From positions 1 to 51,583 of the IMG/VR virus record IMGVR_UViG_2512047041_000005: a stretch of DNA of 51,583 bases; one strand, written 5' to 3'. Source of the DNA: a virus. Its lineage: Duplodnaviria; Heunggongvirae; Uroviricota; Caudoviricetes. The notes beneath the pieces were generated by a model. It ran no database searches. It was given only the letters and a program-made list of their open reading frames with translations, and had not been told where the DNA came from. Below, piece by piece: positions 1 to 47,881 of this stretch (the first letter of the stretch is position 1; every line of letters starts with the position of its first letter). The position numbers and the translations under genes are program-made.

Positions 1-1143
1 CTATGCTGTTTTGATATCTACGATAATCCAGTCTTTACCACGATCATCATTGTATCGGTCGGTCATTTTTCTGGATTTATGGCCTAACAACTTTTGCGTA
101 TCCAGACCCTGTTCCCGATATAACCGTTCTGACAGAGATCGCTGCTCATGAAATGTGGGCGCAGTTCCTGGCTCCCATTTTATGCCACATTTTTCCCTGG
201 CCTTTTTAAAAGCCGTTGTAAGAGTATTTGCAGAAACCTGGTCTCCTCTGTTTGCTTGAGAGGTAGTGTGACGGTAATGGACCAGATATTTACTAACAAC
301 AGCATCCCTGCACTGAGATATAACTTCACGAAGGGTAATATTCAGAGCATCGCATTTCAGGCTAAGCGGAATAGCAAGTTTTGAACCGGTTTTTTCCTGA
401 GTAATGTGCAACATGTCGTCCCATATATCAGAGAATTTCAAATTGCAGATATCGCCTAAACGTTGTCCAGTAACAAGAGCAAGTAGCATGCCGCATTTTA
501 AATAGGGCTGCCGTCTGCTTACGCTTTCAAATATTGCCTGCCATTCGGGCAGTGATAATCTTTGGCGGTTTACTCGATTTCGCGGTTGTTTTGTTGCCTG
601 CGCTGGGTTAAATCCTGGCGGAACATGTCCTGCGTGTTGTGCTTCTTTGAAGACGTCGATCAACACCATTCTCACGACTTGCGCCATCCTGTTATGACCT
701 TCAGCCTTTACAGCATCAATTATTTCGGCAATATCAAGTGCGGTAATATCCTTGAGGTGTTGCATTCCACAATGCTCACGGAAAAGACGAATGGGTTTAC
801 CTTTTTGCCGATAGGAGTTGGGTTTTAGTTCATTATGTTGCAGCCTGTCCTCCTGGATAGAAATATATTTATCAAGCCATTCTGTCACCGTAATGTCTGA
901 GCGCCTGCCTTTCATTCTTTCTAGACGCTCATTGACGCTTAATATTTGTCGGGTACGTTGTTCAGCAATAATGGTATTTGCTTCAGTAGCAACTTGTTTT
1001 GCTTCATTCTCATCAGTTCCTAAGCTATGAAAACGACCGGATAGTGGATGTTTGTATTGCCAATATACCTTTCCGGTTCGCTTATCTAATTTGCAATATA
1101 AATTGGGTATAGAGATTTTGTGAGATCGGGGTCTAGCAGCCAT
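1..1143 (-). CDS. int: Lambdoid tyrosine integrase
   Basis: 380-aa ORF at the prophage left edge; C-terminal catalytic region (HEQRSLSERLY...LGHKSRKMTDRY) typical of lambda-family integrases; xis overlaps its start. Confidence 0.9.
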   Translation of the reverse strand: MAARPRSHKISIPNLYCKLDKRTGKVYWQYKHPLSGRFHSLGTDENEAKQVATEANTIIAEQRTRQILSVNERLERMKGRRSDITVTEWLDKYISIQEDRLQHNELKPNSYRQKGKPIRLFREHCGMQHLKDITALDIAEIIDAVKAEGHNRMAQVVRMVLIDVFKEAQHAGHVPPGFNPAQATKQPRNRVNRQRLSLPEWQAIFESVSRRQPYLKCGMLLALVTGQRLGDICNLKFSDIWDDMLHITQEKTGSKLAIPLSLKCDALNITLREVISQCRDAVVSKYLVHYRHTTSQANRGDQVSANTLTTAFKKAREKCGIKWEPGTAPTFHEQRSLSERLYREQGLDTQKLLGHKSRKMTDRYNDDRGKDWIIVDIKTA

Positions 1144-1369
1144 CAGCGATTATCCGTTGGAGTTTTGGGTTTGCGTTTATTGGGAGTTGCGGTTCTGCAA
1201 GCGTTCCTACAAAACGGGAATTTCGGTCAATCATCCAGTAGCGACCAACTTTTATAGCGGGTGGGGCCATCATTTTCCCTTGCGCGTATTTTTTCAGAAC
1301 TCGCTCACTTGGTGCTAAGTCCCCAAATTCTTCTTTAGCCCAGTCCTGTAAAGTGATTAGTCGAGACAT
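1133..1369 (-). CDS. xis: Excisionase-like protein
   Basis: 78-aa ORF overlapping int start by 11 nt, ATG preceded by GAGGAGGA; resembles excisionase-like proteins of lambdoid prophages. Confidence 0.7.
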   Translation of the reverse strand: MSRLITLQDWAKEEFGDLAPSERVLKKYAQGKMMAPPAIKVGRYWMIDRNSRFVGTLAEPQLPINANPKLQRIIADGC

Positions 1370-1508
1370 TTGTCCTCCTCTTAGCTGCTGAGGGAGTTTG
1401 TGACCGATATATCTGACATGATATTAAGCTCATGGCAGGTACATCTCTTGACTGGTCATAGAGATAAATTTAATGCTGAGAAATGCAGTATTGAATTTAT
1501 CAATTTTT

Positions 1509-1748
1509 CTATTTCCTGCGTATGGCACGTAACTTCTTAATGTGTTCTGCTGTATCGATCTCTTCGGCTATCCGATCTGCATCAGCTTTATTCACAGGTT
1601 CAAAGTCATGATTAAAGCGGAACATGCTGGCGATACATGTTCTGCCTTTTTGGATGTAGTGAACTTTGTTGTGGGTAGAACGCAGGATTTTGCAGGGAGT
1701 GCCGTGGTGGTCGACGTACCAGGTGTTAGGAAAAATGATTCTGAACAT
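1509..1748 (-). CDS. Hypothetical early-region protein
   Basis: 79-aa ORF in the xis-exo leftward operon; no recognisable motif. Confidence 0.45.
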   Translation of the reverse strand: MFRIIFPNTWYVDHHGTPCKILRSTHNKVHYIQKGRTCIASMFRFNHDFEPVNKADADRIAEEIDTAEHIKKLRAIRRK

Positions 1749-1795
1749 TTTTACACCTCAGTTGGACGATGTTGAAATTTGCTGCTTTGAGGCCA

Positions 1796-2014
1796 TTACA
1801 ATCCCCATTGTTTGTTCTTAAGTTCGATCTCCTCCTGGCAACTTGCACAAGTCCGACAACCCTGAACGGCCAGGCGTCTTCGCTCATCTATGGGATCGCC
1901 ACACTCACAACAATGAGTGGCAGATATAGCCTGGTGGTTCAGGCGGCGCATTTTTATTGCTGTGTTGCGCTGTAATTCTTCAATTTCTGATGCTGAATCA
2001 ATGATGTCTGCCAT
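1796..2014 (-). CDS. TraR/DksA-family C4 zinc-finger protein
   Basis: 72 aa with CCECG...C..C zinc-ribbon pattern typical of phage TraR-like proteins. Confidence 0.65.
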   Translation of the reverse strand: MADIIDSASEIEELQRNTAIKMRRLNHQAISATHCCECGDPIDERRRLAVQGCRTCASCQEEIELKNKQWGL

Positions 2015-2112
2015 CTTCCATTAATCCCTGAATTGTTGGTTAATACGCTTGAGGGTGAATGCGAATAATAGAAAAGGAGCCTGTAGCTCCCTGATGATTT
2101 TGCTTTTCATGT

Positions 2113-2328
2113 TCACCGTTCCTTAAAAACGCCGTTTAACATGCCGATCGCTAGGCTTAAATGAGTCGGTGTGAATCCCATCAGCGTTACCGTTTCGCGG
2201 TGCTTCTTCAGTACGCTACGGCAAATGTCATCGACGTTTTTATCCGGAAACTGCTGTCTGGCTTTTTTGATTTCACAATTAGCCTGACGGGCAATGCTGC
2301 GAAGGGCGTTATTATGTTCTATTGTCAT
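2113..2328 (-). CDS. Hypothetical protein (71 aa from internal ATG)
   Basis: Starts 8 nt downstream of the stop of the 250-aa ORF; the upstream part of the 117-aa track ORF overlaps that gene. Confidence 0.4.
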   Translation of the reverse strand: MTIEHNNALRSIARQANCEIKKARQQFPDKNVDDICRSVLKKHRETVTLMGFTPTHLSLAIGMLNGVFKER

Positions 2329-2335
2329 ATTGGCC

Positions 2336-3088
2336 TCACACTTCGAATGCCAGCTGAGGGGTAAAGACGTCCCGTTCAGCGTTGTAATTAAGTGAACTGG
2401 CACTGTTGAATGATTCAATGCGTTCCACAAGAACTTGCGTACGGGTTTCTTTACTTGCGGGAGCATATGGCGAACCTACCCAGGATTTGTCGATGCCTAT
2501 ATTTCTTGCGACGTTCGTGCTGTCTGCAGACGAAAGCGGTACATGAGTAAAAATGTCTTTATTTAACATCCGTAACCCATGAATCTTGGTGATTGGGTAG
2601 CCGTACTGATCTACAACATGACGTATAAGATCGCGTAGTTTAGCCCGACACGCTCTCGGTCGTTTTGCATCGTATTCCCCCATCGAGCCGATGCAGACGC
2701 GGGGAAACTCATGGCACAGACGAATAAATCGCTCATCTGGTTCGTTCATGTGCCACACCGGAGCACCAATAAATTTACCGTGAGGCCATGCCGCAATCAG
2801 GGCGTCATTCTCTTCACTGGTTCCGCCGATAACATCCGGGATAACCGCGAATGAGAAACGAGGGTGATTACCCCAGCGTTCAACAAATCTGTAATATTCA
2901 TTCCAGTCTACGGCCTTGTTTTTTGTCCAGAATGTGAATGCACCATTATCAAGAGCAAATGATTGGGTGACTTCGGAAGCCAGATCAATCTGAGCTGGAT
3001 TAGCAAAACTGATGAATGCGTGTCTGCCTTTCCAGGCTTTCAACGCACAGGTATCGGGAGTTATTGGACCACCGTGAAAATGAATCAT
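2336..3088 (-). CDS. Hypothetical 250-aa protein, possible TGT/DpdA-like enzyme (speculative)
   Basis: Translationally coupled to upstream ORF (ATGA overlap); contains D-N-G-A-F reminiscent of the D-S-G-G-F motif of tRNA-guanine transglycosylases; assignment unverified. Confidence 0.55.
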   Translation of the reverse strand: MIHFHGGPITPDTCALKAWKGRHAFISFANPAQIDLASEVTQSFALDNGAFTFWTKNKAVDWNEYYRFVERWGNHPRFSFAVIPDVIGGTSEENDALIAAWPHGKFIGAPVWHMNEPDERFIRLCHEFPRVCIGSMGEYDAKRPRACRAKLRDLIRHVVDQYGYPITKIHGLRMLNKDIFTHVPLSSADSTNVARNIGIDKSWVGSPYAPASKETRTQVLVERIESFNSASSLNYNAERDVFTPQLAFEV

Positions 3089-3243
3089 ACACTCTCCCGT
3101 TTATTATTTATCTCCTCAGCCAGTCGCTGGGCTTTCAGCGGATTTCGGATAACAGAAGGCCCGGGAAATACCCAGCCTCGCTTTGTAACGGAGTAGACGA
3201 AAGTGATCGCACCTACCCGGATATTATCGTGAGGATGCTTCAT
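3085..3243 (-). CDS. Small ORF (52 aa), lambda orf60a-like
   Basis: [19 protein letters not shown]...; ATGA overlaps with exo stop upstream and the 250-aa ORF downstream. Confidence 0.4.
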
Positions 3244-3920
3244 CGCCATTGCTCCCCAAATACAAAACCAATTTCAGCCAGTGCCTCGTCCATTTTTTCG
3301 ATGAACTCCGGCACCATCTCGTCAAAACTCGCCATGTACTTTTCATCCCGCTCAACCACGACATAATGCAGTCCTTCACGCTTCATACGCGGGTCATAGT
3401 TGGCAAAGTACCAGGCATCTTTTCGCGTCACCCACATGCTGTACTGCACCTGGGCCATGTAAGCTGACTTTATGGCCTCGAAACCACCGAGCCGGAACTT
3501 CATGAAATCCCGGGAGGTAAACGGGCATTTCAGTTCAAGGCCGTTGCCGTCACTGCATAAACCATCTGGAGAGCAGGCGGTACGCATACTTTCGTCGCGA
3601 TAGATGATCGGGGATTCAGTAACATTCACGCCGGAAGTGAACTCAAACAGGGCTCTGGCGTCGTTCTCGTACTGTTTTCCCCAGGCCAGCGCTTTAGCGT
3701 TAACTTCCGGAGCCACACCGGTGCAAACCTCAGCAAGCAGGGTGTGGAAGTAGGACATTTTCATGTCAGGCCACTTTTTTCCGGAGCGGGGTTTTGCTAT
3801 TACGTTATGAACTTCTGAAGCTGTGATGACGCCGAGCCGTAATTTGTACCACGCATCATCCCCCTGTTCGACAGCTCTCACGTCGATCCCGGTACGCTGC
3901 AGGATAATGTCCGGTGTCAT
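3240..3920 (-). CDS. exo: Lambda exonuclease (Red alpha)
   Basis: 226 aa, near-identical to lambda Exo as remembered ([24 protein letters not shown]...GFVFGEQWR). Confidence 0.95.
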
Positions 3921-4702
3921 GCTGCCACCTTCTGCTCTGCGGCTTTCTGTTTCAGGAATCCAAGAGCTTTTACTGCTTCGGCCTGTGTCAGTTCTGACGA
4001 TGCGCGAATGTCGCGGCGAAATATCTGGGAACAGAGCGGCAATAAGTCGTCATCCCATGTTTTGTCCAGGGCAATCAGCAGAGTGTTAATCTCCTGCATG
4101 GTTTCATCGTTAACCGGAGTGATGTCGCGTTCCGGCTGGCGTTCTGCAGTGTATGCGGTATTTTCGACAATGCGCTCGGCTTCATCCTTGTCATAGATAC
4201 CAGCAAATCCGAAGGCCAGGCGGGCACACTGAATCATGGCTTTATGCCGTAACATCCGTTTGGGATGCGACTGCCACGGGCCGGTGATTTCTCTGCCTTC
4301 GCGGGTTTTGCATGGTTCGCGGCGGCATTCATCCATCCACTCGGTAACGCAGATCGGATGATTGCGGTCTTTGCGGTAAATCCGGCATGTACATGATTCA
4401 TTGTCCTGCTCAAAGTCCATACCATCAAACTGCTGGTTTTCATTGATGATGCGGGACCAGCCATCAACGCCCACCACCGGAACAATGCCGTTCTGCTTAT
4501 CAGGGAAGGCGTAAATTTCTTTCGTCCACGGATTAAGGCCGTACTGGTTGGCGACGATCAACAATGCGATGAACTGCGCATCGCTGGCATCACCTTTAAA
4601 TGCCGTCTGGCGAAGAGTGGTGATCAGTTCCTGTGGGTCGACAGAATCCATGCCGACACGTTCAGCCAGCTTCCCTGCCAGCGTTGCGAGTGCTGTACTC
4701 AT
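3917..4702 (-). CDS. bet: Red beta single-strand annealing protein
   Basis: 261 aa, lambda Bet-like ([48 protein letters not shown]...). Confidence 0.95.
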
Positions 4703-4707
4703 CCGTT

Positions 4708-5004
4708 TTATACCTCTGAATCAATATCAGCCTGATGGTGAGCAATGGTTTCAACTATGTACCGGATGTGTTCTGCCATGCGCTCCTGAAACTCAACATC
4801 GTCATCAAACGCACGGGTAATGGCTTTTTTGCTGGCCCCGTGGCGTTGTAAATGATCGATGCATAGCGATTCAAACAGGTGCTGGGGCAGGCCTTTTTCC
4901 ATGTCGTCTGCCAGTTCTGCCTCTTTCTCTTCACGGGCGATCTGCTGGTAGTGACGCGCCCAGCTCTGAGCCTCAAGACGATCCTGAATGTAATAAGCGT
5001 TCAT
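4708..5004 (-). CDS. gam: Gam (RecBCD inhibitor), short form
   Basis: 98 aa [31 protein letters not shown]...; matches lambda GamS; upstream [13 protein letters not shown] is in another frame. Confidence 0.9.
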
Positions 5005-5079
5005 GGCTGAACTCCTGAAAATGGCTGTGAAAATATCGCCCGCGAAATGCCAGGCTGATTAGGAAAACAGGAAAGGGGG

Positions 5080-5223
5080 TTAGTGAATGCTTTTGCTTGA
5101 TCTCAGTTTCAGTATTAATATCCATTTTTTATAAGCGTCGACGGCCTCACGAAACATCTTTTCATCGCCAATAAAAGTGGCGATAGTGAATTTAGTCTGG
5201 ATAGCCATAATTGTTTGATCCAT
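5080..5223 (-). CDS. kil: Kil (host division inhibitor)
   Basis: 47 aa from internal ATG: [47 protein letters not shown], as lambda Kil. Confidence 0.8.
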
Positions 5224-5356
5224 TTTTTGGGACTCCTGGCTGATTGAGTATGTCGATAAGGCGTTTCCATCCGTCACGTAATTTACGGGTGATTCGTTCA
5301 AGTAAAGATTCGGAAGGGCAGCCAGCAACAGGCCACCCTGCAATGGCATATTGCAT
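5192..5356 (-). CDS. cIII: cIII (FtsH inhibitor)
   Basis: 54-codon ORF below the track's 60-aa cut-off: [54 protein letters not shown], overlapping kil start as in lambda. Confidence 0.7.
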   Translation of the reverse strand: MQYAIAGWPVAGCPSESLLERITRKLRDGWKRLIDILNQPGVPKNGSNNYGYPD

Positions 5357-5428
5357 GGTGTGCTCCTTATTTATACATAACGAAAAACGCCTCGAGTGAA
5401 GCGTAATTGGTATGCGGTAACGCCGCGC

Positions 5429-5797
5429 TCAGGCGGCCTTGATAGTCATATCATCTGAATCAAATATTCCTGATGTATCGATATCGGTAATTCTTATTCC
5501 TTCACTACCATCCATTGGAGGCCATCCTTCCTGACCATTTCCATCATTCCAGTCGAACTCACACACAACACCATATGCATTTAAGTCGCTTGAAATTGCT
5601 ATAAGCAGAGCATGTTGCGCCAGCATGATTAATACAGCATTTAATACAGAGCCGTGTTTATTGAGTCGGTATTCAGAGTCTGACCAGAAATTATTAATCT
5701 GGTGAAGTTTTTCCTCTGTCATTACGTCATGGTCAATTTCAATTTCTATTGATGCTTTCCAGTCGTAATCAATGATGTATTTTTTGATGTTTGACAT
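5429..5797 (-). CDS. ea10: Ea10-like protein
   Basis: 122 aa MSNIKKYIIDYDWKASIEIEIDHDVMTEEK...; position after cIII as in lambda. Confidence 0.8.
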   Translation of the reverse strand: MSNIKKYIIDYDWKASIEIEIDHDVMTEEKLHQINNFWSDSEYRLNKHGSVLNAVLIMLAQHALLIAISSDLNAYGVVCEFDWNDGNGQEGWPPMDGSEGIRITDIDTSGIFDSDDMTIKAA

Positions 5798-5917
5798 CTA
5801 TTCATATCCTCATAGATAAAAAATCGCCCTCACACTGGAGGGCAAAGAAGATTTCCAATAATCTGAACCGCCCCGGGAATCCTGGAGACTAAACTTCCTG
5901 AGAAAGAGGTAAACAGG

Positions 5918-6244
5918 ATGACTAAAAATACTCGTTTTTCCCCCGAAGTCCGTCAACGGGCAGTCCGTATGGTTCTGGAAAGTCAGAGCGAATATGACTC
6001 ACAATGGGCGACAATTTGTTCCATTGCTCCAAAGATTGGCTGTACGCCGGAGACTCTGCGTGTCTGGGTTCGCCAGCATGAGCGGGATACCGGGGGCGGT
6101 GATGGAGGGCTCACCACCGCTGAACGTCAGCGTCTGAAAGAGCTGGAACGTGAAAATCGTGAACTGCGCCGCAGTAACGATATCCTTCGCCAGGCTTCCG
6201 CTTATTTTGCGAAGGCGGAGTTCGACCGCCTCTGGAAAAAATGA
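5918..6244 (+). CDS. IS629 transposase OrfA
   Basis: 108 aa HTH/leucine-zipper OrfA ([50 protein letters not shown]...). Confidence 0.9.
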
Positions 6245-7131
6245 TGCCACTGCTGGATAAGCTGCGTGAGCAGTACGGGGTCGGACCGCTATGCAGCGAA
6301 CTGCATATTGCCCCGTCAACGTATTACCACTGTCAGCAACAGCGACATCATCCGGATAAACGCAGTGCCCGTGCGCAGCGCGATGACTGGCTGAAGAAAG
6401 AGATACAGCGCGTATACGATGAAAATCACAAGGTATACGGTGTGCGTAAAGTCTGGCGTCAGTTGTTACGGGAAGGTATCAGAGTGGCCAGATGCACTGT
6501 GGCACGTCTCATGGCGGTTATGGGACTTGCCGGTGTTCTCCGGGGTAAAAAGGTCCGTACGACCATCAGCCGGAAAGCCGTTGCCGCAGGCGACCGCGTA
6601 AACCGTCAGTTCGTGGCAGAACGACCTGACCAGCTGTGGGTGGCTGATTTTACTTACGTCAGCACATGGCGGGGCTTCGTCTATGTGGCGTTCATCATTG
6701 ATGTGTTTGCCGGATACATCGTGGGGTGGCGGGTCTCATCGTCCATGGAAACGACATTCGTGCTGGATGCACTGGAGCAGGCGTTATGGGCCCGTCGACC
6801 GTCCGGCACGGTCCATCACAGTGATAAAGGTTCTCAGTATGTATCGCTGGCCTACACACAGCGGCTTAAGGAAGCCGGATTACTGGCATCAACAGGAAGT
6901 ACAGGCGACTCGTATGACAACGCGATGGCGGAGAGCATCAATGGTCTTTACAAAGCGGAGGTAATACACCGTAAGAGCTGGAAAAACCGTGCAGAAGTGG
7001 AACTGGCCACACTCACGTGGGTGGACTGGTATAACAATCGACGATTGCTGGAAAGGCTGGGCCATACTCCTCCGGCAGAAGCAGAAAAAGCTTATTATGC
7101 TTCCATCGGAAACGATGATCTGGCAGCCTGA
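6241..7131 (+). CDS. IS629 transposase OrfB (DDE catalytic domain)
   Basis: 296 aa rve-type integrase core; overlaps orfA as in IS3-family frameshift pairs. Confidence 0.9.
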
Positions 7132-7173
7132 GTTCACAGATAAAACACTCTCCAGGAAACCCGGGGCGGTTCA

Positions 7174-7295
7174 AAATGATGGGTGATGGTTTCCTTTGGT
7201 GTTACTGCTGTAGGTTTGTTTCCAACAGTAAACGTCTGTTGAGCACATCCTGTAATAAGCATTGCCAGAGCGGCAGAAAACAACATTTTTTTCAT
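7174..7295 (-). pseudogene. bor: bor lipoprotein gene, 3'-truncated by IS629
   Basis: MKKMLFSAALAMLITGCAQQTFTVGNKPTAVTPKETITHHF then reading runs into the IS629 terminal repeat; lambda Bor-like signal peptide and lipobox. Confidence 0.75.
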
Positions 7296-7775
7296 CTTAT
7301 TATCCTGCATTGTTAAAAACGGCAGAATCCTATGTGACAACAATTAAACGATAGTTAAATGGATTGATGAAAATTAAAACTACACAGGTGGGCTCAGACT
7401 ATTGGAGGAAGTTGGGGACACTCAGAATCCTGTGGAATGAAATAAACCGGTCTATCCGTCCATTACCCTTTTAGCTGCGCTGTATCGTCGCCGTATTCCC
7501 GCATTAACCATGACCGTAGCCCGACGGGGAATTCCTTCTGCGTGAGTGTGCGGGAATAATTAAAAACGATGCACACCGGGTTTTTACCGCGTTAATGATT
7601 CGCGGGTTTATCCCGGTGCGATGGTGGAAGAAACAGGAAGCTGTATTACAGAAAGTGCTACTACTGTATCCCGATGCGATGTATGTAATGTGAGTCAGAT
7701 AATGGCACAGGATGTGGTGATGTGGCAGTCTGGAACACAGGATATATTGTCAGAATAAGACCCGTAGGAATAAAA

Positions 7776-9838: not shown

Positions 9839-10270
9839 ATGCGTAAATTATGTGCTGTTATTCTGTCCGCAGTAGTCTGGCTGGTTGCCGCTGGTACGCC
9901 AGCGAGCGCAGCAGAGCATCAGTCCACACTAAGCGCCGGGTATCTTCAGACCCATACTGATATGCCAGGCAGTGATGACCTGAAGGGCATTAACGTGAAA
10001 TACCGTTATGAATTTACGGACACGCTGGGGCTGGTGACGTCATTCAGTTATGCCAATGCCAAAGATGAGCAAAAAACGCATTACAGCGATACCCGCTGGC
10101 ATGAAGATTCCGTGCGTAACCGCTGGTTCAGCATGATGGCGGGGCCATCTGTACGCGTGAATGAATGGTTCAGTGCTTATGCGATGGCAGGTGTGGCTTA
10201 CAGCCGTGTTTCGACGTTCTCCGGGGATTATCTCCGCGTAACTGACAACAAGGGGAAAACGCACGATGTG
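9839..10270 (+). pseudogene. lom: lom (Ail/Lom outer-membrane protein), 5' fragment
   Basis: Signal peptide and Lom-like beta-barrel N-terminal part; reading leaves Lom homology at about 10270 where the Mu-like element begins. Confidence 0.8.
10265..10270. repeat. Left copy of target-site duplication (ATGTGC)
   Basis: Same hexamer at 47651-47656; boundary is ambiguous by up to 3 nt because the element starts TGA. Confidence 0.5.
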
Positions 10271-10349
10271 CTGATGCGCCGCGCGATAAATGCACTCTAT
10301 CTTGTGCGATAAATGGCATCCACGCGGCGTTTCATTATTTGAAAAAGAA

Positions 10350-10922
10350 TTACATTTCAGGTTGCGTTATGACAGTCCCAACAGGGTGATAGCGGTAGAT
10401 CGTTGACAGTCCAATATCATAGATAATTGCCAGCCGCTTTCTGTCATACCCTTTCTGGAGCAATCTTGCGATCTGCTCATGCTGCTCCTTCGTCAGTTTC
10501 GGGCGACGTCCTCCAACTCTTCCTTGTGCTCGCGCAGCAGCCAGTCCTGCCAGCGTGCGCTCAACTATCAGTTCACGCTCCATTTCTGCCAGTGCACCCA
10601 TCATATGAAAAAAGAACCTTCCCATCGGAGTGCTGGTATCGATTGAATCCGTCAGACTGCGAAAATTGACACCTTTTGCGCGTAACTCTTCTGTGAGAGC
10701 AATGAGGTGTTTCATTCTTCTACCCAACCGATCCAGCTTCCAGACCACCAATGTATCCCCTCTTTTAAGGCACTTTAAAGCGCGTTTCAGGCCTGGTCGT
10801 TCCGACTTGGTTCCGCTCATTTTGTCCTCAAAAATCTGTTCACATCCTGCGCACATTAATGCATTGCGTTGCAAATCTGTGTTTTGGTCATTTGTTGACA
10901 CACGTATGTAGCCAATCAGCAT
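10350..10922 (-). CDS. Serine DNA invertase (Pin/Gin/Hin family)
   Basis: 190 aa from internal ATG: MLIGYIRVSTNDQNTDLQRNALMCAGCEQIFEDK..., close to e14 Pin / Mu Gin; C-terminal HTH. Confidence 0.9.
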   Translation of the reverse strand: MLIGYIRVSTNDQNTDLQRNALMCAGCEQIFEDKMSGTKSERPGLKRALKCLKRGDTLVVWKLDRLGRRMKHLIALTEELRAKGVNFRSLTDSIDTSTPMGRFFFHMMGALAEMERELIVERTLAGLAAARAQGRVGGRRPKLTKEQHEQIARLLQKGYDRKRLAIIYDIGLSTIYRYHPVGTVITQPEM

Positions 10923-10988
10923 TAAAAATACTCCCTTTTGAGTGGTTAAAGTACTGAGATAATGTGGGGAGGATTTGAGAGATAAACG

Positions 10989-11211
10989 TTGGTTTGGGGG
11001 AAGGCTCTGCATTGCCTGTTGGTGTACCGGTTCCGTGGCCCACCGCCACACCGCCAGAAGGCTGGTTAAAGTGCGACGGGCGCGCCTTTACAAAAGAACA
11101 ATATCCTGTTCTGGCCAGAGCCTACCCGACCCTCCGTCTTCCCGATTTACGCGGTGAGTTTATCCGTGGATGGGACGACGGGCGCAAGATTGACGAGGGG
11201 CGTAAGTTGCT
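10989..11211. repeat. Inverted repeat A (~222 bp) flanking the invertible fibre segment
   Basis: About 90 percent identical to the reverse complement of 12384-12605; encodes the shared fibre peptide GEGSALPVGVPVPWPTATPP...GWDDGRK. Confidence 0.8.
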
Positions 11212-11467
11212 TTCATGGCAGAAAGGTACACTGGTCGGCGGTCATGACGATAACGATTCTGCGCTTGATATCTCGTACATGAGTAACGGAAATAATATTG
11301 ACTATGGCGGCGATAAGGTGTTTGCGGGGAATTACCGTAGCGATTATTTGTGGTACGCAGTGCTGGGTGGAACAAACAGTCGCGCAAAAGCCGAATTAAA
11401 CGGAGCATTCTTTAACATAACCCGCCCCCGCAATATCGCGTTTAACTATATCGTGAGGGCGGCGTGA
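10994..11467 (+). CDS. Alternative tail-fibre C-terminal cassette (silent orientation)
   Basis: No ATG (track start is TTG, a Leu codon in the repeat); begins with the IR-encoded peptide and ends NIAFNYIVRAA like the expressed fibre; would fuse to the fibre after inversion. Confidence 0.6.
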   Translation: MGEGSALPVGVPVPWPTATPPEGWLKCDGRAFTKEQYPVLARAYPTLRLPDLRGEFIRGWDDGRKIDEGRKLLSWQKGTLVGGHDDNDSALDISYMSNGNNIDYGGDKVFAGNYRSDYLWYAVLGGTNSRAKAELNGAFFNITRPRNIAFNYIVRAA

Positions 11468-11473
11468 TACCGT

Positions 11474-12088
11474 TCAACTGGCAAGTGCCAGTGGCGCTTC
11501 CGGCCAGCTGATTTCAGGTGCCGTGCTGATATCCAGTGCGTTCAGCTCGTCGATATAATCCAGCACGGCGTTCAGTTTTGCCGTTTCTTCTGGTGTCAGA
11601 CTGCGACCAGCACGCAGTTTGAGGTTGATAAGATCGACGGACGCCATCGCCTGTTTCACCCGTTGCTGGCGTTGCTGTCTGGCAACCTCCAGTTCTGCGG
11701 CTCGCTGCCGTTCAGTATCGGTTACCCACGCCTCACCGTTCCAGGTATCCCATGGCGTGGCTGGCTGTTTTGTGGTGGTGTCCGCCGGGTAATCACCCGG
11801 TTGGGTAATCAGAACGGGGTTACCGTTCTCCGTGCTGTATACCGTCTCGCCGCGGTGATCAGGCACATGCTCCCACCCGTTCAGCGTGGCAGTCCGGCAA
11901 ACCACGTAACCCGAAATTGCCTCCGGCGGTGCATCGGCGCACGAATGTGCCGGAGTACCCACCCCAAGGGCGAGATACTCCACAGAGGATGAGGTGTATT
12001 CCCGGGTTTCCTCGTCATAGTGATATACAGTGATATCGCCCGCTACAGTGGCGATACCGTTTTCATCCAGAACTGCAGTGTTACTCAT
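11474..12088 (-). CDS. Tail-fibre assembly protein (Tfa/U-like chaperone)
   Basis: 204 aa directly downstream of the fibre gene; typical Tfa N-terminus MSNTAVLDENGIATVAGDITVYHYDEETREY. Confidence 0.8.
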   Translation of the reverse strand: MSNTAVLDENGIATVAGDITVYHYDEETREYTSSSVEYLALGVGTPAHSCADAPPEAISGYVVCRTATLNGWEHVPDHRGETVYSTENGNPVLITQPGDYPADTTTKQPATPWDTWNGEAWVTDTERQRAAELEVARQQRQQRVKQAMASVDLINLKLRAGRSLTPEETAKLNAVLDYIDELNALDISTAPEISWPEAPLALAS

Positions 12089-13425
12089 TAAACTGCCCTC
12101 ACAATGTAATTAAGTGCAATGCTACGGGGTCTGACAGTGATACCCTTCGCATACCCGCTTCTGATAGAGGTCAGAATAGTAGCCTGCATACCATTGTCTG
12201 ACATTGCCACGACAGGATCGCTGAATGTTGTCCCGTCCGGCATTTTAAAGCTGCCCTCACGAAGGTCTGTAATGGAATCTTCATTGTTGAATCCCATGCC
12301 GACTATCCCCGAGGTTCCCGTAGTGTCCTGGTTATAATAATCCAGCATTGCTGTTCTTAACAGCGTTGCCCCTTGTGCGGACAGCAACTTACGTCCTGTA
12401 TCAACTTTGCGCCCGTCGTCCCATCCACGGATAAACTCACCGCGTAAATCGGGAAGACGGAGGGTCGGGTAGGCTCTGGCCAGAACAGGATATTGTTCTT
12501 TTGTAAAGGCGCGCCCGTCGCACTTTAACCAGCCTGCTGGCGGTGTGGCAGTGGGCCACGGAACAGGTACACCAACGGGCAGCGCCGAGCCTTCCCCCAA
12601 ACCAAGGTAATTGAGGACATCTTTTATACTGCCCTTAGCGATAATAGCGCGACCAATAGCTGTAAGGGTTGCCAGCGCTGCTCGGTCTGCTCCGGTAAAA
12701 TAAGGCAACCGATCTGCTGCAGTGGCAAGTCCTGCCAGAGCAGTGAGCGTGGCATCTGCCGGTTGTTTTCCGTTTGCCAGATCGTATGCAGCCTTGACCG
12801 CTTTCGGTGTGGCGGCCAGTATTTCAGACGTGCTGTTGATGGCACTGCTCAATTGTACGGTGCCTTTTGCCGTCAGCGAGGCAGCAGGCACTCCCGTTAT
12901 CTGACTCCACGGGTGAGTGTGGCTGACGGGCGCCTTGCCGGCTGCAAGGTCGTATGCAGCCTTGACCGCCTTCGGCGTGGCAGCCTCAGTTTCTGATTGA
13001 CTGTCCGTGGCGCTGCTCAGTTGTACGGTGCCTTTTGCCGTCAGTGAAGCCGCAGGCACTCCCGTTATCTGACTCCACGGGTGAGTGTGGCTGGCAGGCG
13101 CCTTGCCGGCTGCCAGGTCGTATGCAGCCTTGACCGCTTTTGGTGTGGCGGCCAGCGTTTCAGAGGTGCTGTTGGTGGCACTGCTCAGTTGGGTGAACCC
13201 CTTAGCTGTCAGTGTCGCGTCCGGGTGGTTACGGGAACGTACGTGTTCAGCCAGTGACTGTGCGGCTTCCTCCGTTTTCTTCTTCAGCCATTTCGTCCTG
13301 TTTGCCAGTTGCCGGGGGGCTCGATTTGATATCCCGTCTGCACCACCCAGAACCGGATCTGATGTCTCCAGTTGATAGATATTTTCTTCCCACTTTTCTG
13401 TTTCATTCAGGTTTCCCATAATCAA
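12088..13425 (-). CDS. Tail fibre protein
   Basis: Collagen-like/ATPKAVKAAYDLA repeats (168-bp tandem units near 12900-13240), C-terminal NYIVRAV; probable ATG 6 nt inside the track ORF. Confidence 0.85.
   Translation of the reverse strand: MIMGNLNETEKWEENIYQLETSDPVLGGADGISNRAPRQLANRTKWLKKKTEEAAQSLAEHVRSRNHPDATLTAKGFTQLSSATNSTSETLAATPKAVKAAYDLAAGKAPASHTHPWSQITGVPAASLTAKGTVQLSSATDSQSETEAATPKAVKAAYDLAAGKAPVSHTHPWSQITGVPAASLTAKGTVQLSSAINSTSEILAATPKAVKAAYDLANGKQPADATLTALAGLATAADRLPYFTGADRAALATLTAIGRAIIAKGSIKDVLNYLGLGEGSALPVGVPVPWPTATPPAGWLKCDGRAFTKEQYPVLARAYPTLRLPDLRGEFIRGWDDGRKVDTGRKLLSAQGATLLRTAMLDYYNQDTTGTSGIVGMGFNNEDSITDLREGSFKMPDGTTFSDPVVAMSDNGMQATILTSIRSGYAKGITVRPRSIALNYIVRAV
12384..12605. 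repeat. Inverted repeat B, partner of 10989-11211
   Basis: Lies inside the expressed tail-fibre gene at the constant/variable boundary. Confidence 0.8.
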
Positions 13426-44993: not shown

Positions 44994-45101
44994 TTACGCT
45001 ATCAGGTAACAGCCGGAAATTAAAAGCCTGCCGAATATCTGCCAGATACCTTTTTGCCCGCGCCTTTTTTAAGAACGTCAGGCCGGGGATCACTGTAGTG
45101 G

Positions 45102-46352
<1,251 letters not shown>

Positions 46353-47518: not shown

Positions 47519-47822
<304 letters not shown>

Positions 47823-47881
47823 ATTAGCCAGGTAACACAGTGTTATGACAGCCCGCCGGTTCAGGCGGGCTTTTTTGTGGA

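Follow-up and report, generated by a model that had tools for sequence, protein, structure and literature searches.

The DNA analysed here, a viral stretch of 51,583 nucleotides referred to below as the window, starts with the left arm of a lambda-like prophage whose whole gene set lies on the minus strand. The following features were assigned in this early-left block.

1-1143, minus strand: int
1133-1369, minus strand: xis
1509-1748, minus strand: DUF4222 gene
1796-2014, minus strand: DksA/TraR zinc-finger gene
2021-2116, minus strand: 31-aa ORF
2074-2092, minus strand: terminator-like hairpin with a T-run directly 3' of the 71-aa gene, a consensus match only
2113-2328, minus strand: gene of a 71-aa phrog_303 protein (4e-34), called by PGAP in E. 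coli IAI39
2317-3085, no strand assigned: 769-bp mosaic cassette, found in the window and in Shigella phage SfI, with an unrelated 277-bp segment in its place in phage 1H12
2336-3088, minus strand: 250-aa DpdA-family ORF of the DpdA-only clade, a putative 7-deazaguanine DNA transglycosylase, equal to SfI gp34
3085-3243, minus strand: gene of a 52-aa DUF1317 protein, homolog of lambda orf60a (Pfam PF07026, 1.5e-32)
3240-3920, minus strand: exo, lambda exonuclease of the YqaJ family (profile matches and PGAP)
3917-4702, minus strand: bet, Red beta (PGAP and junction reading)
4708-5004, minus strand: gam
5918-7131, plus strand: IS3-family transposase gene in the place of lambda ral/N/pL

The junctions were read directly. 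ATGA overlaps join bet to exo, exo to the DUF1317 gene, and the DUF1317 gene to the 250-aa ORF. The exo TGA overlaps the DUF1317 ATG at 3243; an alternative start at 3249 that would give 54 residues is also open, and PGAP picks the 52-aa form. A GGGAGAG Shine-Dalgarno sequence lies upstream of the ATG of the 250-aa ORF. The stop codon of this ORF is overlapped by a GAGG Shine-Dalgarno sequence and followed by the 7 nt GGCCAAT and the ATG of the 71-aa gene, and the stop codon of the latter overlaps the start of the 31-aa ORF as GTGA. A chain of coupled genes running from exo to the 71-aa ORF, linked by ATGA overlaps or an 8-nt gap, had been described in the earlier note. The overlaps exist as described, the gap measures 7 nt instead of 8, and the chain extends further, through the ATGA of bet and exo and the GTGA of the 31-aa ORF.

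The 52-, 250- and 71-aa ORFs are also PGAP calls in E. coli IAI39, which is 99.8% identical to the window over the first 25 kb. That these short ORFs are real genes is further indicated by their matches to Pfam DUF1317 (1.5e-32), phrog_887 (4e-99) and phrog_303 (4e-34), respectively. The 31-aa ORF at 2021-2116 contains the terminator-like hairpin. Because PGAP skips this ORF, which is annotated in SfI and 1H12, it may be no gene. The SfI annotation also gives a 117-aa version of the 71-aa gene (window 2113-2466), which overlaps the DpdA-like gene by 131 nt.

The lambdoid prophage is a remnant that has lost most of its late genes. The IS3 element isolates the ea10-cIII-kil-gam-bet-exo operon from the promoter and antiterminator that natively serve it, and with pL and N removed in this way, expression of the 250-aa gene at this locus is doubtful. 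One explanation of the locus is that the gene is a silent passenger in this genome, an intact cassette stranded in a degraded prophage and of no present use to the cell. The replacement of ral/N/pL by IS3, the loss of late genes and the presence of a Mu-like prophage inside lom favour this explanation, as does a consensus scan of the minus strand from 1300 to 7300, which gave no sigma-70-like site. However, the ORF is undamaged and exactly matches that of SfI, a functional phage, and read-through from IS3 or weak promoters beyond the consensus scan is possible. We consider the chances of this explanation to be about even; the intact gene in this remnant is probably a poorly expressed passenger. 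The explanation concerns the locus and is compatible with the enzymatic function proposed below.

The Mu-like transposable prophage is about 37 kb long and lies at approximately 10275-47650, between the N-terminal part of lom (9840-10274) and its C-terminal part (approximately 47650-47823). It encodes a transposase, a MuB-like ExeA protein, Mor, Mu Gam and Mu-type head and tail genes. The tail-fibre segment at 10986-12605 is inverted relative to E. coli IAI39 and lies beside an invertase gene at 10351-10923; it looks like an invertible region of the G-segment type in its other orientation. The early region of the Mu-like prophage also carries a 1258-bp IS3-family insertion with IS911-like orfA/orfB (45094-46351), which is missing from IAI39 and is not a copy of the element at 5918.

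The surroundings of the 250-aa gene were compared with phage 1H12. Both flanks in 1H12 are 98% identical to those of the window, and the phage retains the DUF1317 gene and a 93-aa version of the 71-aa gene with a different N-terminus, with no DpdA between them. The joints fall at the DUF1317 stop/DpdA ATG and 11 nt inside the 71-aa ORF. The DpdA-like gene is thus a mosaic cassette with joints at gene boundaries, and since the second joint lies within the 71-aa ORF, the N-terminus of the 71-aa protein varies with the upstream cassette.

The neighbours of the gene are poorly conserved among its close relatives. DUF1317 immediately precedes it in 20 of 68 assessable close loci and the 71-aa gene immediately follows it in 14 of 74; exo is no more than 1 kb away in 11 of 68, and 26 of 80 close loci have none of the neighbours seen in the window. 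DUF1317 and the 71-aa protein were considered as partners of DpdA and rejected, given these adjacencies, their occurrence without DpdA in 1H12 and the identity of DUF1317 as lambda orf60a. A functional tie to Red recombination was likewise rejected as unsupported; with exo close by in so few loci, the linkage is positional. The earlier note had described a translationally coupled gene chain and spoken of a Red-linked gene. Neither side idea is supported: exo overlaps orf60a in the same manner in lambda itself, so that the chain is generic packing of a lambda pL operon, and relatives do not consistently keep the link to Red, to DUF1317 or to the 71-aa gene, the 1H12 flanks existing without DpdA.

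The DpdA-like gene itself is under strong purifying selection. The median dN/dS is 0.047 over 312 pairs, with differences mostly at third codon positions; these values come from all-against-all pairs, since dS was saturated between the window allele and the 80-91%-identical alleles. The gene was found at 99% or higher nucleotide identity in 99 of 5,426 complete E. coli genomes, where it is annotated as "hypothetical protein", and in 108 of 50,697 phage records. A copy 67.6% identical to the window protein occurs in GenBank OR850331.1, a 1719-bp record named "Staphylococcus phage SA 1298 Kay". It scores like the proteins of Salmonella P22-like phages, and the record probably bears a wrong label or stems from contamination.

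With gp34 of Shigella phage SfI (YP_009147480) the 250-aa protein shares 100% identity. The two DNAs agree at 97.7% nucleotide identity across the whole DUF4222-to-ea10 block, and both have the same int-xis...exo-bet block. The difference lies in the host element, which is here a degraded prophage without pL/N. SfI YP_009147480 and HK106 YP_007151699 are both given as DpdAs of phages without pathway genes in Supplementary Data 1 of Hutinet et al. 2019 (PMC6884629). That entry rests on bioinformatics, and the same authors regard it as difficult to predict whether such phages carry modified DNA (PMC6884629). With the identical SfI protein listed among the DpdAs since 2019, the assignment of the window protein is known and adds nothing new; the guess of the earlier note is correct.

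Support for the assignment came from profile comparisons. The window protein matches phrog_887 ("queuine tRNA-ribosyltransferase") with an E value of 4e-99, and the validated DpdA of phage 9g matches the same PHROG with 2e-98. We did not rely on the PHROG label and checked the relationship directly against 9g DpdA, whose expression by itself in E. coli leads to preQ0 insertion into DNA, as demonstrated experimentally (PMC6884629). A family profile of 79 members, 29-51% identical to the window protein, was aligned to 9g DpdA by hhalign at 98.1% (E 8.5e-14), and to a DpdA1 profile of 9g DpdA and ten homologs at 99.1% (E 5.3e-19, 166 columns). Plain BLASTP found the relation to 9g DpdA with an E value of 3.6e-7.

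Other database searches were empty. The 250-aa protein has no match in Pfam (E <= 1), in NCBIfam or in the PADLOC models for DpdA and Cap10 (E <= 10), a result that is uninformative because the validated 9g DpdA also misses the Pfam TGT family. Sequence searches of the PDB with the protein and two family profiles returned no TGT or DpdA, because the relationship is too remote for HMM-versus-sequence searching.

The putative catalytic residues were located by alignment. Three segments of the gene are of particular relevance.

2927-2959, minus strand: FALDNGAFTFW motif, residues 44-54, with the D47 codon at 2948-2950
2834-2836, minus strand: D85 codon within IPDVI, aligned with 9g D114 at the base-recognition Asp position (SmDpdA D130)
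2522-2581, minus strand: KIHGLRM...SADST, from H170 (2579-2581) to D189 (2522-2524), aligned with 9g KVHGF...SCDSS

The motif FALDNGAFTFW, from which a likeness to tRNA-guanine transglycosylases (TGTs) had been drawn, is indeed present. By itself it would amount to evidence at chance level; the full-length homology found later gives it meaning. D47 aligns with the Asp of LDSGAF in 9g DpdA, which is where the general acid/base is found (SmDpdA D95, TGT D102), and D189 occupies the position of the nucleophile (SmDpdA D256). In the whole alignment, D47, D85, H113, G134, H170 and D189 correspond to 9g D72, D114, H141, G162-163, H196 and D215, and the paired motifs of window protein and 9g DpdA are LDNGAF/LDSGAF, IPDVI/SVLDG, PVWH/PCFH, IGS/LGG, KIHGLRM/KVHGFGI and SADST/SCDSS. 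All six window residues are near-invariant in the 29-51%-identical relatives and are kept in 72-73 of 73 close alleles. They follow the same order, with similar spacing, as D95, D130, H181, G206 and D256 in Salmonella DpdA, an enzyme that has been crystallised and mutagenised, with D95 assigned as acid/base, D130 and H181 as base-recognition residues, and D256 as nucleophile (PMC10164549). Judged from the sequence, the window protein appears to possess the conserved catalytic Asp set for acid/base, nucleophilic and base-recognition functions. The roles given to D47, D85 and D189 are transferred through the alignment from the SmDpdA mutagenesis (PMC10164549).

The protein was compared with several known enzymes of this kind. 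With 9g DpdA (DpdA1) it shares its PHROG, the hhalign relationship at 98-99% and the common elements LD(S/N)GAF, P(C/V)(F/W)H, (L/I)G(G/S), K(V/I)HG and S(C/A)DS. Both proteins are without the Zn Cys cluster: the only cysteines of the window protein are at positions 14, 125, 132 and 147 and form no cluster, and its C-terminus extends about 60 residues past the nucleophile Asp. The two differ in that 9g DpdA, which is about 20% identical to the window protein, has 317 aa, an extra 40 residues at the N-terminus and a longer C-terminus. The bacterial DpdA of S. Montevideo (PDB 7ui4) is about 410 aa long with a structural Zn site and a large Ins8 insertion, and it needs the DpdB ATPase, whereas the window protein is without all of these. 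Membership in a bacterial Dpd system also finds no support at the locus, where the protein has no PADLOC DpdA match (E <= 10) and its neighbours are lambda early genes with no dpd island. Canonical Tgt (PF01702) has a CxCxxC...H zinc site in its C-terminal subdomain; the window protein is about 125 residues shorter, does not have this site and has no Pfam PF01702 match (E <= 1). For the DpdA of Pantoea phage MED16, HHpred gave 99.2% against the T. maritima TGT (PMC8306585). A sequence-profile link to canonical Tgt was not reproduced here, hhalign against E. coli Tgt and a Tgt profile giving a probability of 1.2%.

Cap10 of type IV CBASS (PDB 9ntn) differs from these enzymes in its target, as it acts on a protein-linked 7-amido-7-deazaguanine in a complex with CdnD and Cap9. 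The H170/D189 pair of the window protein resembles H226/D248 of Cap10. A TGT-fold enzyme with a target other than DNA might be considered, either one that transfers a protein-linked 7-amido-7-deazaguanine as Cap10 does, perhaps against type IV CBASS, or one that exchanges bases in host or phage tRNA. The window locus has neither an operon with a CD-NTase and a QueC-like Cap9 nor a match to the Cap10 model, and the identity to Cap10 is 11%. We regard such a target as improbable for this protein.

The TIM barrel expected of a TGT-type enzyme, which the earlier note's suggestion implied, was borne out by structure prediction. The AlphaFold2 model (pLDDT 78.4, pTM 0.78) shows an alternating beta/alpha barrel pattern, with low confidence at residues 1-11 and 190-250, and is consistent with the TGT-like (beta/alpha)8 barrel of a phage DpdA. 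Against predicted viral structures, Foldseek returned 23 matches with E <= 1e-3, and all the named ones are phage "queuine tRNA-ribosyltransferase" proteins. Against the PDB the search was non-discriminating, with nothing below E 1e-3 and ArcTGT at rank 16. A TIM-barrel enzyme of unrelated kind, such as an aldolase or glycosidase, in which the D-x-G-x-F likeness is coincidental, is strongly disfavoured as the identity of the protein. In favour of this reading, dehydroquinase, tryptophan synthase alpha and transaldolases head the PDB matches (none below E 1e-3), and Pfam and NCBIfam are empty.

Inspection of the gene neighbourhoods connected the family to 7-deazaguanine metabolism. Homologs of folE, queD, queE, queC and yhhQ gave no tblastn match in the 51.6-kb window, and none of these genes was found in 80 close viral loci (78-100% identity, 10 kb on each side). 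This absence does not exclude membership in the family, because it is what defines the DpdA-only group; with no pathway genes in phage or window, the base must come from the queuosine pathway of the host. The family members that are joined to pathway genes are 36-43% identical to the window protein (E 1e-40 to 1e-47). In Pectobacterium phage PEAT2 an upstream YhhQ/Vut_1 gene overlaps the family gene, and in 24 contigs Vut_1 directly follows the family gene P0370 with a 4-nt overlap. The locus of P0334 (L092) has the order ERF, YqaJ exonuclease, one further gene, family gene, QueC (PF06508, 1.7e-47) and YhhQ. Among 80 sampled viral contigs of the sister clade, counted within 5 kb and on the same strand, 31 carry YhhQ (22, of which 18 directly adjacent), QueE (9) or QueD (3). 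YhhQ is a transporter of the precursors preQ0/preQ1 (PMC6884629). The linkage to YhhQ and Que genes connects the family with 7-deazaguanine bases by a line of evidence separate from homology.

Two further observations were made on these relatives. Among the distant members P0238 and P0249 and at L087:2840-3847, the DpdA-like domain is joined in one case with a D12 Dam-type DNA adenine methyltransferase and in one with a QueD/PTPS domain; these could be real fusions or read-throughs of gene calling. In L092:5588-9714 the family gene again stands just downstream of a recombination pair (ERF and YqaJ), comparable to bet-exo in the window; this recurring placement probably reflects a shared position in early operons.

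Taken together, profile homology, the common PHROG, the fold, the conserved aligned residues, the family-level linkage to 7-deazaguanine genes and the published classification of SfI bear out the earlier suggestion of a TGT-like, DpdA-type protein, and the 250-aa protein is very probably a member of the phage DpdA family. We propose that it belongs to the DpdA-only gammaproteobacterial clade and has a pared-down TGT-like TIM barrel that lacks the zinc subdomain. If it works as the validated DpdAs do, the reaction would begin with an attack of D189 on C1' of a deoxyguanosine in duplex DNA, and guanine would be expelled with D47 as the acid. D47 would next deprotonate N9 of the 7-deazaguanine base and thereby allow the covalent intermediate to be resolved, and D85 and H113 would read the base edge. 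The inserted base would be host-made preQ0, and dPreQ0 or dADG would be the form recovered. The gene of intact lambdoid phages is part of the N-antiterminated pL early-left operon, a position from which the enzyme should act on replicating phage DNA during lytic growth. Its packing with exo, DUF1317 and the 71-aa gene is the usual operon architecture and not a functional module. Modification is expected at approximately 0.02-0.3% of G, presumably for anti-restriction or anti-defence. The observations made here concern homology, the class of fold, the conserved residues, gene linkage at the family level, selection and the structure of the cassette; the substrate, DNA as the target, the modification level and the biological role are inferred. 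We assign a probability of roughly 0.75 to the full functional statement, namely that the protein is a host-dependent DpdA that would place 7-deazaguanine in DNA at a low level during lytic growth, with a presumed anti-restriction or anti-defence purpose.

The nearest relatives for which virion DNA has been measured are MED16 DpdA (39% identity, E 3e-47) and gp032 of Salmonella phage 7-11 (36% identity, E 1e-27). MED16 encodes dpdA only, its DNA contains dADG at about 0.13% of G, and the tested restriction enzymes were unaffected by it (PMC8306585). The dADG content of phage 7-11 DNA is 0.02% of G. Mycobacteriophage Orion, another DpdA-only phage, has no modification in its DNA. MED16 and 7-11 resemble the window protein in belonging to the same subfamily, in having DpdA only and in needing host precursors. 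They differ in being lytic or other phage types with measured virion DNA; our literature search found no paper testing a lambdoid or P22-like member. The trace-only modification in DpdA-only phages, combined with the unblocked restriction of MED16 DNA, makes a protective role doubtful.

MED16 and 7-11 carry the amido form dADG and not dPreQ0, and no known DpdC-like hydratase is encoded in them. Cap10, the best structural match, binds a 7-amido-7-deazaguanine conjugate. It is possible, by analogy, that an amido-specific pocket is common to Cap10 and the DpdA-only phage proteins.

A more speculative role for the DpdA-only clade of temperate enterobacterial phages, which we regard as unlikely, is that the enzymes provide no bulk anti-restriction and instead would set rare, probably site-specific 7-amido- or 7-cyano-7-deazaguanine marks made from host queuosine precursors, or would act on a non-DNA target like that of Cap10. 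The purpose of such marks might be the evasion of a particular defence or an epigenetic signal during early replication and recombination.

No new kind of system is revealed by this locus. The RefSeq/PGAP label "hypothetical protein" in the 99 E. coli genomes can be improved to phage DpdA family. The DpdA-only group in temperate phages is large, with 76 phages in 2019 and thousands of prophage copies now.
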